From: Escherichia phage QL01
Sequence record: NC_028847.1
Length of the DNA stretch: 64,000 bases
Direction: 5' to 3' (one strand)
In this document: piece by piece, positions 9,116 to 37,520 of the stretch
Position numbering within the stretch: position 1 is the first letter of the stretch
Layout: the number at the start of each line of letters is the position of its first letter
Position numbers and translations under genes: made by a program
The notes under the pieces: generated by a model
The model's database searches: none
Seen by the model: only the letters and a program-made list of their open reading frames with translations
What the model was told of the DNA's origin: nothing

Positions 9116-9766
9116 TTATTTTATAAATTCACGTAGTCTTACTGGTGTCATAAAAGGCCATTTGGCTATAGTTGGTTTTATCCAGTATCTTTCGTGGCAT
9201 GTAGCTTTAAATGCCCGAACCATATCCTTGGCCTCTTCTATAGTATCCACACCAAATTGTTCACAAGTTTCCTTTCTGGCTTTATCCCATCTCCGTTTAG
9301 AAAGCTCCGCTTGGAGTTCTTTATTGGCAAAACGGCCATTATTCCTATCATGAGTGGTTCCTTTTGTAGGACTCCATCCTCGTCCCTTTACAAATCCTTC
9401 AGGAATCGGTTCACCCGGAAACAGCTTAATACACTTCTTGCCATTATTATAATAAACCTTTCCTGTTTGGGTTGCTGTGATATTCTCAGAGTGCTTACGT
9501 TTAAGCCAGCCGTAAAGCTTATTAGAACGACGAGGGCCTTGAGTCATTGTCATAGCTGCAAAAGTTAGACCAGGATGTCCTGGATGCATTTTAACTAATA
9601 GTTGATGTGCTAAATAATGTTCTTCAGGAGTTAAATCAACTAAGTTTGTAGATTCATCACCTCCACCCATACATCTAGGTAAAATATGATGAGATTCGGT
9701 ATAACAGGATAGTGCTCGTCCTTGAGCACGTGTAATTAATGAAGAATATATTTTCTGGTAATTCAT
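9116..9766 (-). CDS. HNH homing endonuclease (Mob-like)
   Basis: motif ESHHILPRCMGGGDESTNLVDLTPEEHYLAH; ATG at 9766 overlaps gp2 stop; inserted between genes 2 and 3. Confidence 0.75.
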   Translation of the reverse strand: MNYQKIYSSLITRAQGRALSCYTESHHILPRCMGGGDESTNLVDLTPEEHYLAHQLLVKMHPGHPGLTFAAMTMTQGPRRSNKLYGWLKRKHSENITATQTGKVYYNNGKKCIKLFPGEPIPEGFVKGRGWSPTKGTTHDRNNGRFANKELQAELSKRRWDKARKETCEQFGVDTIEEAKDMVRAFKATCHERYWIKPTIAKWPFMTPVRLREFIK

Positions 9767-31875: not shown

Positions 31876-33858
31876 ATGGCTTTATTATCACCGGGCATTG
31901 AGCTCAAAGAAACGTCCGTACAGAGTACTGTCGTTCGTAACGCAACGGGTCGTGCAGCGCTGGTTGGTAAATTCCAGTGGGGCCCTGCTTTCCAGGTAAC
32001 TCAGATTACTAATGAAGTTGAACTGGTCGACTTATTTGGAGGTCCTAATAACGAAGTTGCTGATTACTTCATGTCGGGTATGAACTTCCTCCAGTATGGT
32101 AACGACCTTCGTACTGTTCGTGTTGTTAACCGTGAATTCGCTAAAAACGCGTCTCCGGTAGCGGGTAACGTCCAAACCACTATTACTACTGCAGGTTCTA
32201 ACTATGCGGTAGGCGATAAAATTAATATCAAATATAACCAGACTGTTGTTGAATCTGAAGGTCGTGTGACTTCTGTAGATACGGATGGTAAAATTCTTTC
32301 CGTGTTTATCCCATCAGCAAAAATTATTGCTTATGCACGTTCTTTAAACCAGTATCCGAACCTCGGCCCGGCATGGACTGCTGAAGTAACTTCTGCCTCT
32401 TCAGGTGTTTCTGGTACTATTACCGTTGGTAAAATCGTAACCGATTCCGGTATTCTTTTGACCGAAGCAGAGAACAGTGAAGAAGCTATTACTTCCCTAG
32501 AATTCCAAGCGTCTCTTAAACAGTTTGGTATGCCTGGCGTGGTCGCTCTTTATCCTGGTGAAATTGGCAGCACCTTAGAAGTAGAAATTGTTTCTAAAGC
32601 AGCTTATGATGTCGGTTCTTCTAAAATGCTGGATATTTATCCTGGCGGTGGTACCCGTGCTTCTATTGCCAAGGCAGTATTTAACTACGGCCCACAAACA
32701 GATGACCAATACGCAATTATTGTTCGTCGTGATGGCGCTATCGTAGAATCTGTCGTACTTTCTACCAAAGAAGGTGAAAAAGACGTTTACGGTAATAACA
32801 TTTATCTTGACGACTATTTCGCTAAAGGTACTTCTAACTATATTTTTGCTACCTCTTTGAATTGGCCTAAAGGCTTCAGTGGTATCATCAATCTTATGGG
32901 TGGTGTATCTGCTAACGATCAGGTTACTGCGAGTGATTTGATGCAGGGTTGGGATTTGTTTGCCGACCGTGAAGCACTCCATATTAACCTTTTGATTGCT
33001 GGTGCTGTTGCCGGTGAAGGTGATGAAGTTGCTTCTACCGTCCAGAAACACGTTGTTAGTATTGCTGATGAACGTCAGGATTGCTTGGCATTTATTTCTC
33101 CTCCTAAAGGACTGTTGGTTAACGTTCCATTGACTCGTGCAGTAGATAATCTTATCGACTGGCGTACCGGTGCAGGTACTTTCGATACCAACAACATGAA
33201 CATTAGCACCACTTATGCTGCTATTGATGGTAACTATAAATATCAGTATGACAAATATAATGACGTAAACCGTTGGGTGCCTCTGGCCGCTGATATGGCT
33301 GGTTTGTGTGCACGTACTGATGATGTTTCTCAGCCTTGGATGTCTCCGGCAGGTTATAACCGTGGCCAGATTCTTAACGTTCTGAAATTGGCAATTGAAC
33401 CGCGCCAAGCTCAACGTGACCGCATGTACCAAGAAGCTATTAACCCAGTTGTTGGTTTTGCTGGTGGCGATGGTTTCGTATTGTTTGGTGATAAGACTGC
33501 AACCAAAGTTCCATCTCCGATGGACCACATTAACGTTCGCCGTCTGTTCAACATGCTTAAGAAAAATATCGGTGATGCCTCTAAATATAAACTGTTTGAA
33601 TTGAACGACAACTTCACTCGTTCAAGCTTCCGTATGGAAGTTTCTCAGTACTTAGATGGTATTAAGGCACTTGGTGGGATTTATGAAGGACGCGTGGTTT
33701 GTGATACTACAGTGAACACCCCTGCGGTTATTGACCGTAACGAGTTTATTGCTAATATATACATCAAACCGGCGAGATCGATAAATTATATCACTCTTAA
33801 TTTCGTGGCTACTTCTACCGGTGCAGATTTTGACGAGTTGATTGGACCACTAGTTTAA
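31876..33858 (+). CDS. 18: gp18 tail sheath protein
   Basis: 660 aa, synteny and size (T4 gp18 659 aa). Confidence 0.9.
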   Translation: MALLSPGIELKETSVQSTVVRNATGRAALVGKFQWGPAFQVTQITNEVELVDLFGGPNNEVADYFMSGMNFLQYGNDLRTVRVVNREFAKNASPVAGNVQTTITTAGSNYAVGDKINIKYNQTVVESEGRVTSVDTDGKILSVFIPSAKIIAYARSLNQYPNLGPAWTAEVTSASSGVSGTITVGKIVTDSGILLTEAENSEEAITSLEFQASLKQFGMPGVVALYPGEIGSTLEVEIVSKAAYDVGSSKMLDIYPGGGTRASIAKAVFNYGPQTDDQYAIIVRRDGAIVESVVLSTKEGEKDVYGNNIYLDDYFAKGTSNYIFATSLNWPKGFSGIINLMGGVSANDQVTASDLMQGWDLFADREALHINLLIAGAVAGEGDEVASTVQKHVVSIADERQDCLAFISPPKGLLVNVPLTRAVDNLIDWRTGAGTFDTNNMNISTTYAAIDGNYKYQYDKYNDVNRWVPLAADMAGLCARTDDVSQPWMSPAGYNRGQILNVLKLAIEPRQAQRDRMYQEAINPVVGFAGGDGFVLFGDKTATKVPSPMDHINVRRLFNMLKKNIGDASKYKLFELNDNFTRSSFRMEVSQYLDGIKALGGIYEGRVVCDTTVNTPAVIDRNEFIANIYIKPARSINYITLNFVATSTGADFDELIGPLV

Positions 33859-33886
33859 GTTTACTTGCTCTAAGCTTTATGGTATA

Positions 33887-34543
33887 ATGCGCGTATACAC
33901 AATACGCGCAAGGATTTCTAAAGTGATTATTACTAAATTTGTTGATGTAAAAATAAATACTAACAATTACAGTTATTTCTTAGACTTAGGGTATGAGTTG
34001 GAACCTCTAGGAGCACCGAAGCATGGGCATAAGTGCCAAACTATTCGAGCAAAAGTTTCTGATTTAAAGGATGGTTCTAATAAAGAAGTTCAATGTATCT
34101 GCGATAAATGTGGCACAGAATTCAAACAAAGGATTGCTAGAAATACCGATGTATGTTATCCTTGTAGGCGTCATGAAGCTCTTATAGGTAACACCAACGG
34201 TAAAGCTAATAAAGGTAAAACTCTACCTCATATGCAAGGTGAAAACCATCCAAGATGGAACCCTAATAAATCTGAATACTTTGCTTATGCATCAAAGGTT
34301 AGAGCTGTTACTTATGCTTGTAAAGACGAGTGGATGGCTTGGGAAAATGCAGATAAAATAGGGTTATGTGGAGTTGAAGGTGCTTACCAATTAGACCATA
34401 AGGTTTCAGTAGCTTATGGATTCTATAACCATATCCCAGCAGAGATAATTGGACAATTATCAAATTTAGAAATAATCACTTGGGAATCCAATAGAGCTAA
34501 AAGTAAGTCTAGTTCAATAGACTTATGGGACTTACTATCCTAA
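33887..34543 (+). CDS. HNH homing endonuclease (start possibly GTG at 33923)
   Basis: C-terminal motif YQLDHKVSVAYGF...NLEIITWESNRAKS plus CxxC...CxxC zinc-finger; inserted between gp18 and gp19. Confidence 0.65.
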   Translation: MRVYTIRARISKVIITKFVDVKINTNNYSYFLDLGYELEPLGAPKHGHKCQTIRAKVSDLKDGSNKEVQCICDKCGTEFKQRIARNTDVCYPCRRHEALIGNTNGKANKGKTLPHMQGENHPRWNPNKSEYFAYASKVRAVTYACKDEWMAWENADKIGLCGVEGAYQLDHKVSVAYGFYNHIPAEIIGQLSNLEIITWESNRAKSKSSSIDLWDLLS

Positions 34544-34687
34544 ATAAATTATATCTCCTTAATCTATTATCCCAGGCTGTAATATAAAGAACCTAAAACC
34601 ATTATACCATGAGTTTGGTTACAGCGTACATCACGCAGAATTGCGCCTGGGGTTGATTATTCTTTAGGAATATGATTTATCAACTGT

Positions 34688-34695
34688 TATAAATA
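34688..34695 (+). promoter_or_regulatory. late promoter TATAAATA for gp19
   Basis: exact TATAAATA about 52 nt upstream of gp19 ATG. Confidence 0.55.
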
Positions 34696-34747
34696 AATTA
34701 ATCAGAACGTTCCTGGTGTGTCCAGGAACTGACTTAAGAGGCATCCC

Positions 34748-35239
34748 ATGGAGTTGACAGATATCACTCGTGCATTTGAGTCAGGTGACTTTGCACGCCC
34801 TAACCTTTTCGAAGTGGAAATTCCATTTCTTGGTAAAAACTTTAGCTTTAAATGTAAAGCAGCACCAATGCCTGCTGGCATTGTAGAAAAAGTACCGGTT
34901 GGCTACATGAACCGTAAAATTAACGTAGCTGGTGACCGTACGTTTGATGATTGGACAATTACCATTTATAACGATGATGCACATGACACCCGTCAAGCAA
35001 TTGTCGATTGGCAGAATCTCTGTCACGGTATGACCAATGAAATTACCGGTGCAGCACCTGCAGAATATAAGAAACAAGCAGTAGTTCGCCAGTTCCATCG
35101 TGACGGCAAGACTGTGACCAAAGAAGTTACAATTTACGGCTTATGGCCTACTAACGTTGGTGAAGTCCAGATGGACTGGGACTCGAATAACGAGGTAGAA
35201 ACATTTGAAAGCACATTTGCTATTGACTGGTGGGAATAA
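34748..35239 (+). CDS. 19: gp19 tail tube protein
   Basis: 163 aa, same size as T4 gp19. Confidence 0.9.
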   Translation: MELTDITRAFESGDFARPNLFEVEIPFLGKNFSFKCKAAPMPAGIVEKVPVGYMNRKINVAGDRTFDDWTITIYNDDAHDTRQAIVDWQNLCHGMTNEITGAAPAEYKKQAVVRQFHRDGKTVTKEVTIYGLWPTNVGEVQMDWDSNNEVETFESTFAIDWWE

Positions 35240-35268
35240 GTTTTTACTTTTATAGCAAATTATGATAG

Positions 35269-35276
35269 TATAAATA
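35269..35276 (+). promoter_or_regulatory. late promoter TATAAATA upstream of GIY-YIG endonuclease gene
   Basis: exact TATAAATA about 30 nt upstream of ATG at 35307. Confidence 0.5.
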
Positions 35277-35306
35277 CATTCAAACAATGAAGTCAAGGAG
35301 TTTAGA

Positions 35307-35888
35307 ATGTATTGTACTTACTTAACCATATACACGGGGTCTAAACTACCCCGTCGTTATATTGGCTCAACATACGTTGAAAGGATTCTCAAAGAAGGAT
35401 ATAATGGTTCTGTATTATCCCAAGCATATAAAAAGATTTGGAATCTAGAACGTAAAGAAAATCCGCACCTTTTCAAAACCAGAATTTTATCTTTATTTGA
35501 AACCGATAAAGAAGCTCGTATAGCTGAGAAAGAGCTTCAAATAAAGTATAATGTAGTTAAATCTAAAAACTATATAAATATGTCATTAGCTCAGCCTGAC
35601 GGGTTCTTTGGAATGTCTCGTAAAGGGATTCCAATGAGTGAACATGCCAAACAGCTACAAAGAGATTGTAGGTTAGGTAAAAAGAGGCCTGAACATTCTA
35701 AAGCTCTAAAAGGACGTAAGCGACCAGACCAAGCCAAAGCTATGTCTGGTGAAGGTAATCCGATGTTTGGTAAAGAACATCCGGCTAAAGGCAAAAAGAT
35801 TAATCAGCCAAGGATGATTTGCCCTATCTGTGGTGTTGAATCAACTCGTTCGGCTATAACACGTTATCACAAACATGAAAATGAATGA
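35307..35888 (+). CDS. GIY-YIG homing endonuclease (Seg-like)
   Basis: N-terminal YLTIYTGSKLPRRYIGST GIY-YIG motif; repeated NUMOD3-like K/R-rich motifs; inserted between gp19 and gp20. Confidence 0.75.
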   Translation: MYCTYLTIYTGSKLPRRYIGSTYVERILKEGYNGSVLSQAYKKIWNLERKENPHLFKTRILSLFETDKEARIAEKELQIKYNVVKSKNYINMSLAQPDGFFGMSRKGIPMSEHAKQLQRDCRLGKKRPEHSKALKGRKRPDQAKAMSGEGNPMFGKEHPAKGKKINQPRMICPICGVESTRSAITRYHKHENE

Positions 35889-35889
35889 G

Positions 35890-35897
35890 TATAAATA
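35890..35897 (+). promoter_or_regulatory. late promoter TATAAATA for gp20
   Basis: exact TATAAATA just after the endonuclease stop codon. Confidence 0.55.
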
Positions 35898-35945
35898 GAA
35901 TTATCAAGGAGCTTCGGCTCCTTATCCCATTCATCGGAGACTCTA

Positions 35946-37520
35946 ATGGCAAACTTTAATACAATATTAAGTTTTCTTAAGCCATGGGCTAATGAAGACG
36001 AAAAAGAATATAAACAACAAATTAATAACAATTTAGAGTCTGTCACCGCACCTAAGCTTGATGATGGCGCTCGCGAAATTGAGACACAAGAGCAAAATAT
36101 TCCTTATAATGCTCTTATGCAACAGATGTTTGGTAGTAATGAGCCTGAAGTTAAAAATACCAGGGAACTTATTGATACCTACCGTAATTTAATGAACAAC
36201 TATGAAGTCGACAACGCCGTACAGGAAATTGTGTCTGACGCTATTGTCTATGAGGATGATAAAGAAGTAGTTGCATTGAATTTAGACGGGACAGAATTTA
36301 GTCAAGCAATTAAAGATAAAATCTTGGCCGAATTCAGTGAAGTTTTAAACCTTTTAAATTTCCAACGTAAAGGTACTGACCATTTCCAACGCTGGTATGT
36401 AGACTCAAGAATTTTCTTTCATAAAATTATAAACCCTAAAAAAATGAAAGATGGCGTACAAGAGCTTCGTCGCTTAGACCCACGCCAAGTCCAATATATT
36501 CGTGAAATCGTTACACGTATGGAAGATGGCGTTAAAGTTGTAGACGGATATCGCGAGTTTTTCGTTTATGATACAGGCCATGAAAGTTATTGCGCTGATG
36601 GACGCATTTATTCAGCCGGGACTAAAGTTAAAATTCCTCGTGCTGCAGTGGTTTATGCTCATTCTGGATTATTAGATTGTTGTGGTAAAAACATCATTGG
36701 CTATTTGCAACGTGCTATTAAGCCTGCAAACCAGCTTAAATTGATGGAAGACGCAATGGTCATCTACCGTATTACACGTGCTCCTGACCGTCGTGTGTTT
36801 TATATCGATACAGGTAATATGCCTTCACGTAAGGCTGCAGCACAAATGCAACATATCATGAACACGATGAAAAACCGTGTGGTGTATGATGCTTCGACAG
36901 GTAAAATTAAAAACCAACAACACAATATGTCCATGACTGAAGACTATTGGTTGCAACGTCGTGATGGTAAAGCGGTAACAGAAGTTGATACAATGCCAGG
37001 TGCTACTGGTATGAGTGATATGGATGACGTTCTTTATTTCCGCACAGCACTTTACCGTGCGTTGCGTGTTCCTGAATCACGTATCCCTAGCGAGTCTAAT
37101 TCTGGTGTTATGTTTGATGCCGGTACAGCAATCACTCGTGACGAATTAAAATTCTCTAAATGGATTCGTCAACTACAAAACAAATTTGAAGAAATTTTCC
37201 TAGACCCGTTAAAAACAAACCTCATTCTTAAAAAGATTATTACAGAAGATGAGTGGGAAAAGGAAATAAATAATATTAAAGTTACGTTTAACCGTGATAG
37301 CTATTTCAGTGAAATGAAAGATGCTGAAATCATGGAACGCAGAATCAATATGCTAACGATGGCTGAACCATTTATTGGTAAGTATATTTCACATCAAACG
37401 GCTATGAAAGATTTCCTCCAAATGACCGACGAAGAAATTAATCAAGAAGCTAAGCAAATTGAAGAAGAGTCTAAAGAGGCTCGTTTCCAAAACCCAGATG
37501 AAGAAGAAGAGGATTTCTAA
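35946..37520 (+). CDS. 20: gp20 portal vertex protein
   Basis: 524 aa, same size as T4 gp20. Confidence 0.9.

Follow-up and report, generated by a model that had tools for sequence, protein, structure and literature searches.

The window analyzed here, a 64-kb stretch of DNA, derives from a Dhakavirus, a T4-like coliphage of the JS98/Bp7 type; in comparisons over 24 kb, identity is 97.7% with Bp7 (coverage 97%) and 98.4% with WG01 (coverage 94%). An earlier note on this DNA had described a Seg-like GIY-YIG homing endonuclease gene between genes 19 and 20, and this placement is borne out by the ORF coordinates together with Pfam matches to both neighbors. The seg-like gene is a free-standing intergenic ORF, present in some close relatives and missing in others, that runs from ATG to TGA and encodes a product of 193 amino acids beginning with MYCTYLTIYTGSKLPRRYIGST. 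No further copy was found when the window was searched. The locus comprises the following features:

34748-35239, + strand: gene 19 (tail tube), the upstream neighbor; Pfam Phage_T4_gp19, E=2.8e-10, and junction alignment.
35176-35239, + strand: last 64 nt of gene 19, a cassette-linked synonymous tract; comparison with IME08 and of seg+ with seg- genomes.
35234-35240, + strand: left junction copy GAATAAG (end of gene 19 and its stop), by sequence reading.
35238-35886, + strand: 649 bp inserted with respect to Dhakaviruses whose site is empty; delimited by aligning IME08 and PSD9.
35267-35318, + strand: predicted leader hairpin; MFE -12.7 kcal/mol, z=-2.97, per-sequence folds.
35269-35276, + strand: T4-type late promoter box TATAAATA for seg, cassette-borne; an exact match, conserved with the gene.
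35307-35888, + strand: seg-like ORF.
35334-35354, + strand: GC-rich hairpin in codons 10-16 (ACGGGG-7 nt-CCCCGT), flagged as terminator-like.
35883-35897, + strand: right junction copy GAATGAG, followed by the resident gene-20 box TATAAATA (35890-35897); identity to empty sites.
35906-35923, + strand: UUCG-loop hairpin in the gene-20 5' UTR, z=-2.15; resident, present in empty sites.
35946-37520, + strand: gene 20 (portal), the downstream neighbor; Pfam Portal_T4, E=5e-193.

Another endonuclease-like insert lies beyond gene 19, at 18|19; among the 53 phage-collection records matching window positions 33800-36200, no single one spans the 18|19 insert together with the 19|20 insert. The earlier note is silent on the 18|19 insert, on the zinc-finger-like end of the protein, on the duplication of the junction, and on the leader and codon 10-16 hairpins.

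Three elements can be distinguished in the encoded protein:

35307-35606, + strand: putative GIY-YIG catalytic domain, residues 1-100, with TIY (7-9), YIG (18-20), GYNGS (31-35), E74, and N91.
35625-35801, + strand: three NUMOD3-like basic repeats, residues ~107-165, presumed to bind DNA; Pfam NUMOD3 E=0.011, and homologues.
35820-35876, + strand: zinc-finger-like module C172-x2-C175 ... H188-x-H190; structural model and Pfam matches of homologues.

The N-terminal GIY-YIG motif that had been proposed from the sequence is indeed present as TIY and YIG, which sit on strands 2-9 and 17-23 of the AlphaFold model, and Y9, Y18, E74, and N91 do not vary among the 55 homologues. The usual spacing from GIY to YIG is 10-11 residues; here it is 8 (GIY-x8-YIG). 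The model has a pLDDT of 85.5 overall and of 92-98 across residues 1-90, and its fold order is beta-beta-alpha-alpha-beta-alpha, that is, a three-stranded sheet with flanking helices. By position and fold rather than by residue-level superposition, E74 and N91 appear to be the equivalents of the catalytic glutamate and the downstream asparagine of I-TevI (E75 and N90). At position 26, where the counterpart of the catalytic arginine on the first helix of I-TevI (R27) is expected, the 55 homologues have Arg (33), Lys (16), or some other residue (6).

For the two expected domains, the single sequence remains below threshold in Pfam; the family profile matches SegE, and 41 of the 55 homologues match NUMOD3. 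With the single sequence, there is no match to Pfam PF01541 (GIY-YIG) at E<=1, PF19835 (SegE_GIY-YIG) reaches 17.6 bits where the cut-off is 25, and searches of NCBIfam and PDB return nothing useful for the catalytic domain; at E<=0.01, PF19835 is matched by 6/55 homologues and PF01541 by 1/55. When the family profile is searched against PDB, no GIY-YIG domain is matched and only the NUMOD3 region of I-TevI is recovered, which is also the sole region aligned by hhalign against I-TevI (48%). PHROG 314 ('homing endonuclease') is matched at E=1e-29, and in hhalign the 55-sequence profile aligns with T4 SegE over 72 columns covering residues 16-94 (93.9%, E=1.6e-7). Local hmmsearch gives 25.8 bits for SegC, 25.6 for SegE, 18.7 for SegA, and 14.2 for SegG, with the collinear motifs YIG / GY(M/N)GS / F..IL / AE.E / Y.N shared with SegC, SegA, and SegG. 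The SegE profile match, PHROG 314, and the invariant residues thus support the identification of a Seg-like GIY-YIG homing endonuclease made in the earlier note, and sequence comparison places the protein, as a predicted nuclease, in the Seg branch of the GIY-YIG proteins. Because its similarity to any T4 Seg amounts to only ~25 bits, it represents a distinct Seg subfamily.

The NUMOD3-like repeats that had been proposed for the C-terminal half are real, with 13 residues each (GKKRPEHSKALKG, GRKRPDQAKAMSG, and GEGNPMFGKEHPAKGKK), although the score of this protein itself against NUMOD3 (PF07460) is 16.1 bits and falls below the cut-off of 20.4; the best of the homologue matches reaches E=1.3e-22. 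The family profile also matches residues 39-72 of the I-TevI DNA-binding domain (1I3J, E=0.034). The last 25 residues read CPICG...RYHKH, and residues 169-187 are modelled (AF2) as a beta-hairpin plus helix. The Cys columns of this zinc-finger-like module are conserved in 33-35 of the 55 homologues, and C2H2, Di19, and BED zinc-finger Pfam models each match 3-7 of them.

The gene is an optional occupant of its site. Genes 19 and 20 are separated by 706 nt here and by 57 nt at empty sites, and alignment with IME08 and PSD9 delimits the insertion to 649 bp, with a breakpoint that is ambiguous within a common GAAT. Used as a query, the 706-nt intergenic sequence is found at 100% identity in Bp7, vB_EcoM_005, and IME540; the remaining Dhakavirus records align to its last 63 nt only, the cassette being missing from ~45 other records among the 53 that match the gene 19/20 region. 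The site is also empty in T4, where the gap is 83 bp, and in 75 of the 79 T4-like loci recovered from IMG/VR using gp19, in which the gap is 30-150 bp; the other four have gaps of 640-730 bp, and all four carry a homologue of the seg-like ORF. A gene universally present at this site, which would have spoken against an insertion, is therefore not what synteny reveals.

The cassette is flanked by a duplicated junction composed of the gene-19 stop and TATAAATA (GAATRAG ... TATAAATA). On the left, GAATAAG is followed by a 28-nt spacer and then TATAAATA; on the right, TATAAATA comes directly after GAATGAG. Empty sites read ...TGGGAATGAG|TATAAATAGAATT... at the insertion point, and the alignment with IME08/PSD9 gives the empty-site sequence as ...GATTGGTGGGAATGAG|TATAAATAGAATTATC.... 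Gene 19 ends in TAA here and in TGA in the empty-site relatives, and it is the TGA stop of the seg ORF that matches the gene-19 stop of empty sites in frame and context. From 35883 rightward, identity to the empty-site phages is 100%, taking in GAATGAG, TATAAATA, the UUCG hairpin, and the start of gene 20. In the metagenomic orthologue L180, a 16-mer repeat, GAATAAGGTATAAATA, is perfect at both ends of the cassette.

The two exact promoter motifs that had been reported around the gene (35269-35276 and 35890-35897) were both confirmed on the + strand. The window contains 19 TATAAATA boxes, 15 of them on the + strand; shuffling predicts 8.0 +/- 3.0, and not one of 100 shuffled sequences had as many as 19. 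The starts of gp18, gp19, the seg-like ORF, gp20, and gp22 are each preceded by a box at a distance of 35-60 nt. The distance from exact box to start codon is 38 nt for seg and 56 nt for gene 20. Since the sequence from 35883 is identical in empty sites, the downstream box is that of the promoter already resident before gene 20. The upstream box, in turn, belongs to the cassette, because this box, followed by the leader CATTCAAACAATGAAGT, is kept together with the gene in the orthologues of Pectobacterium PM2, Kosakonia 305, Moon/Karamvirus, and L180. These comparisons bear out the suggestion that the insertion carried or preserved promoter signals: the upstream box travels with the cassette, and the gene-20 promoter is left uninterrupted. 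A late-promoter box, exact or in a close variant, lies upstream of gene 20 in every occupied site examined, in varying relation to the seg gene. In Moon and Karamvirus it overlaps or is embedded in the 3' end of seg (...TGTAATAAATA...), in KP13MC5-5 it spans the seg stop codon, and in the Acinetobacter orthologues it lies 36 nt before that stop; in L022, a new box is found within the last seg codons and the resident box would drive seg. Two further candidates were set aside. An internal TATAAATA at 35573-35580 (codons Y-I-N), considered as an embedded promoter, is conserved no further than PM2 and Kosakonia and, being absent from the Moon/Karamvirus orthologues, is probably due to chance. The seg leader was also considered as an operator-like mimic of the gene-20 leader, and by eye the two have only TCAAGGAG in common, which is missing in PM2.

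The seg leader is predicted to fold into a hairpin whose 5' arm (35267-35285) overlaps the promoter box, whose 3' arm (35300-35318) covers the AUG (35307-35309), and whose loop holds the Shine-Dalgarno sequence AAGGAG (35293-35298). Late transcription in T4 starts ~6 nt downstream of the box, and for an RNA assumed to start there the leader fold drops from -12.7 to -3.4 kcal/mol. Support for the structure comes from per-sequence folds with shuffles: of 14 promoter-bearing orthologue leaders, 13 are predicted to form a similar hairpin, the pairing being preserved where the arms have changed, and for the 11 compared with shuffles z lies between -1.3 and -4.6. The PM2 hairpin has 12 perfect pairs, including a C-G to U-A change; that of Kosakonia contains a G-U pair; those of the Karamvirus orthologues have 10 perfect pairs; and that of L022 has 13 pairs. 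In KP13MC5-5, the arms AATACCTC/GAGGTATT cover the Shine-Dalgarno sequence, and in Acinetobacter phage Konradin the arms are AAUAUUUUCAUA/UAUGAAAUAUU, a pairing that does not appear in the MFE fold of its relative AB-Navy1. In more distant members of the family, the box is predicted to lie in the loop of an RBS-sequestering hairpin. From a plain MAFFT alignment of 11 leaders, RNAalifold recovered no shared structure, since the distance of the 3' arm from the AUG varies between leaders. By analogy, we infer from the leader fold that the hairpin may gate translation of seg.

The GC-rich hairpin of codons 10-16 has a predicted stability of -11 to -16 kcal/mol in the orthologues at the 19|20 site and, with the exception of L144, is weak or missing elsewhere in the family. 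Its stem, which is retained in phages of hosts ranging from E. coli to Acinetobacter, is composed of the rarest Thr, Gly, and Pro codons of the phage (10%, 4%, and 2% usage); a single compensatory change, A-T to G-C, occurs in KP13MC5-5.

At the same site, phages of Pectobacterium, Kosakonia, Citrobacter, Enterobacter, Klebsiella, Acinetobacter, and Aeromonas carry orthologues that are 50-83% identical, so that, counting Escherichia, the site holds orthologues in phages of eight host genera. The phage genera concerned are Mosugukvirus, Kanagawavirus, Moonvirus, Karamvirus, Jiaodavirus, Lazarusvirus (Acinetobacter), and Chrysonvirus (Aeromonas), and five metagenomic contigs also carry the gene at this site; a paralogue in HX01 (40%) lies at a different site, adjoining gene 39. 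Across genera, the paired identities of Seg and gp20 are 83/76, 71/77, 66/70, 52/64, and 50/46%. Such tracking of gp20 by Seg favors a long-standing presence at the site, combined with losses and with transfer inside genera, and divergence that follows the flanking genes fits prolonged vertical inheritance in place, accompanied by losses, no less well than it fits active homing. An older statement holds that there is no convincing evidence of such elements moving across phage clusters (PMC2993671); that a single Seg lineage has persisted at the same site in phages of eight host genera is relevant to it.

Within the Dhakaviruses, the comparison of backbones reveals a footprint of transfer. From 34877 to 36009 (~1.1 kb), the window equals Bp7 and vB_EcoM_005 without a single difference, Bp7 being 2.3% divergent over 24 kb; this identical tract reaches ~310-360 bp into gene 19. 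Outside the tract, the backbone is of the PSD9/WG01 type: rightward, in gene 20, there is 1 mismatch in 1635 bp relative to PSD9, a phage of the WG01 species, and the window lacks the Bp7 variants at 36010-36011. Relative to IME08, there are 12 differences within the final 64 nt of gene 19, every one of them synonymous, compared to 10 in the other 428 nt of the gene. Between three seg+ and six seg- genomes, 7 sites in this tail plus the stop codon are fixed, and no fixed differences between them lie to the right of the cassette. The asymmetric tract fits gene conversion from a Bp7-like donor and suggests that the endonuclease target may lie in the 3' end of gene 19, the tail of which is a candidate co-conversion tract, a candidate set of target-site immunity polymorphisms, or both. 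As a clean signature of immunity, the tail is weakened by the comparison of IME08 with PSD9, both of which have empty sites and are identical at only 54 of these 64 positions.

Several properties of the element are shared with known endonuclease genes of T4. SegE and SegC are likewise free-standing between conserved genes and sporadic among close relatives, and the T4 Segs share the N-terminal GIY-YIG motif series K-YIG / DGY(M/L/N)GS / F..IL / AE.E / Y-N as well as a basic C-terminal DNA-binding half, a function presumed here; the seg+/seg- differences in the flanking tract also match the expectation from the marker co-conversion described for these enzymes. In contrast, similarity to SegE and SegC is limited to ~25 bits and the 19|20 site of T4 is empty; GIY and YIG are ~10 residues apart in the T4 Segs rather than 8, and the zinc-finger-like end is a feature of the present protein. 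The cassette, moreover, has a predicted late promoter of its own, unlike the seven free-standing endonucleases of T4, which have been described as promoter-less cassettes (PMC2988022).

A parallel to the predicted arrangement of promoter and hairpin is offered by I-TevI, in which an adjacent upstream late promoter is combined with a hairpin that blocks translation on longer transcripts, an arrangement described for I-TevI, I-TevII, I-TevIII, segB, and Aeh1 mobE (PMC2988022). I-TevI also shares with this family the NUMOD3-type element of its DNA-binding domain. It differs in being encoded in an intron (of the T4 td gene) rather than free-standing, in having a helix-turn-helix C-terminal domain that is absent here, and in carrying its zinc finger in the linker, whereas the zinc-finger-like module is C-terminal in the present protein. 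The hairpin covers the AUG here and the RBS in I-TevI, KP13MC5-5 being the exception, and, unlike in I-TevI, the upstream transcripts that would have to be discriminated against are themselves late.

Taking these lines of evidence together, we consider it very likely that the ORF is a free-standing Seg-type GIY-YIG homing endonuclease gene, carried in a 649-bp cassette placed exactly at the junction between the gene-19 stop and the gene-20 promoter. The left copy of the promoter would drive the endonuclease gene, and the right copy, with its untouched downstream leader, would still drive the portal gene. Read-through RNA from the promoters of genes 18 and 19 would fold the hairpin in which the promoter-box region is paired with the start codon; RNA from the cassette's own late promoter would lack the 5' arm, such that most of the enzyme would come from this late transcript. 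When seg+ and seg-less phages infect the same cell, the enzyme would cleave the seg-less allele either close to where gene 19 ends or at the junction, and repair from the seg+ genome would copy in the cassette along with flanking gene-19 sequence.

Some of the same observations can be read differently. The direct repeat that flanks the cassette, perfect over 16 nt in L180, raises the alternative that the cassette is gained and lost mainly by ordinary recombination between the short duplicated stop + TATAAATA repeats, with the nuclease incidental or active no more than occasionally. Exchange between the two copies would restore the exact empty-site sequence, and this would resemble the modular shuffling that has been reported in T4-type genomes for cassettes of promoters and stem-loops ('Mobile Regulatory Cassettes Mediate Modular Shuffling in T4-Type Phage Genomes', PMC2839356). 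A repeat of 15-16 bp, however, accounts for loss and not for acquisition; the invariance of the catalytic residues in 55 homologues argues for selection on nuclease activity, and the extension of the 1.1-kb Bp7-identical tract into gene 19 runs far past the repeats. We regard this account as quite unlikely. Distinctly improbable, too, is that the gene is a resident, domesticated or decaying relic, inherited vertically since before the genera split and repeatedly lost, which would either be inactive in homing or serve only to regulate by binding DNA or to exclude competitor phages. The parallel divergence of Seg and gp20 across genera is in its favor, as are the precedents of I-TevI, which doubles as a repressor of its own late promoter (PMC2988022), and of mobA and I-TevIII, defective endonuclease genes carried by T4. 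Against it, the ORF remains intact, with catalytic residues that do not vary, and the cassette is 100% identical in Dhakaviruses that differ elsewhere; this identity, together with its presence on different backbones, indicates recent lateral movement. The absence of any match to Pfam or NCBIfam at curated thresholds, or of a PDB sequence match to a GIY-YIG domain, would be expected if the ORF encoded a small DNA-binding protein with no nuclease, resembling GIY-YIG proteins by chance, an interpretation that we hold to be very improbable indeed.

The preferred reading, that of a Seg-type homing endonuclease gene, makes the element another case of a kind already in the databases and poorly annotated there. 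The genes of Bp7 (AEN93954.1), vB_EcoM_005, and IME540 encode a 100% identical protein at the same site; the UniRef cluster is already named 'Homing endonuclease', the same genes are annotated as hypothetical proteins in GenBank, and RefSeq mislabels them as 'HNH endonuclease'. Literature searches turned up no specific account of this gene or of any seg gene at the 19|20 site. Correction of the 'hypothetical protein' and 'HNH endonuclease' annotations would concern a gene of many T4-like phages that are therapeutic candidates.

A more speculative proposal, which draws on the analogy with I-TevI and which we think unlikely, is that the two hairpins form a regulatory unit metering the expression of tail tube and portal, and that the enzyme recognizes the stop/promoter junction and represses its own promoter as I-TevI does. 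The hairpin of codons 10-16, for example, might act as an attenuator that replaces the gene-19 terminator of some empty sites. If this were true, the fidelity of the Seg lineage to one intergenic promoter across at least eight phage genera would reflect promoter recognition.

As a Seg-type homing endonuclease gene, the element would provide a natural example of a selfish nuclease gene lodged between two essential, highly expressed structural genes, in which the portal gene keeps its promoter and 5' leader because the cassette duplicates the stop-codon/promoter junction. Since the predicted target tract is short and seg+/seg- pairs of genomes that are 97-98% identical have been isolated (Bp7 and vB_EcoM_005 versus JS98, IME08, and WG01), intronless homing, the length of co-conversion, and the gating of translation by the hairpin should be directly testable in these phages.

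The 193-aa seg gene (35307-35888, + strand) is of the GIY-YIG type, and it is labelled 'HNH endonuclease' in RefSeq and 'hypothetical protein' in GenBank (NC_019500, NC_055783, NC_028940, NC_027331, and other records); in myPSH1140 the ORF carries no annotation at all. Gene 20 of Bp7 is annotated as two CDSs, and in the alignment Bp7 has a 1-nt gap within this gene at window position 36254.

Beyond the exact late promoter boxes upstream of seg and gene 20, the seg ORF contains a third copy:

35573-35580, + strand: exact TATAAATA, in the codons for Y-I-N of the catalytic YxN motif

This copy is shared with the orthologues of PM2 and Kosakonia 305. Since it is not kept in those of Moon or Karamvirus, its occurrence, judged from these sequences, is probably due to chance.

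On the other side of gene 19, dense differences separate the window, Bp7, and vB_EcoM_005 across the 5' end of the gene and its upstream leader (34700-34876), and the three are identical from 34877 on. This mosaic boundary (34876/34877) coincides with differing inserts between genes 18 and 19, as if each insert had carried its own flank. Elsewhere in the window, tblastn located a further endonuclease gene:

approximately 9383-9766, - strand: mob-like HNH endonuclease gene

It matches the N-terminus of T4 MobB (48% identity, E=5e-25) as well as MobC, MobD, and MobE, with a short match to the C-terminal region of SegE.

Two hairpins were identified, one inside seg and one ahead of gene 20:

35334-35354, + strand: GC-rich hairpin (ACGGGG-7 nt-CCCCGT) inside the seg ORF, codons T10-G11...P15-R16
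35906-35923, + strand: UUCG-tetraloop hairpin GGAGCUUCGGCUCC in the gene-20 5' UTR, between late promoter and start codon

The gene-20 leader hairpin is also kept at Dhakavirus and Kanagawavirus loci that lack the seg cassette (L015-L028), with compensatory variants such as GAGGCUUCGGCCUC in L026-28. The coding hairpin (about -11 kcal/mol) is built from the rarest codons of the phage (ACG 10%, GGG 4%, CCC 2%) and is kept in all seg orthologues at the gene 19/gene 20 junction, at protein identities as low as 52%, with one compensatory change (A-T to G-C) in KP13MC5-5. In seg family members at other sites it is weaker or missing, with one outlier (L144, -11.3 kcal/mol). The coding hairpin could act as an attenuator, or could substitute for a gene-19 terminator.
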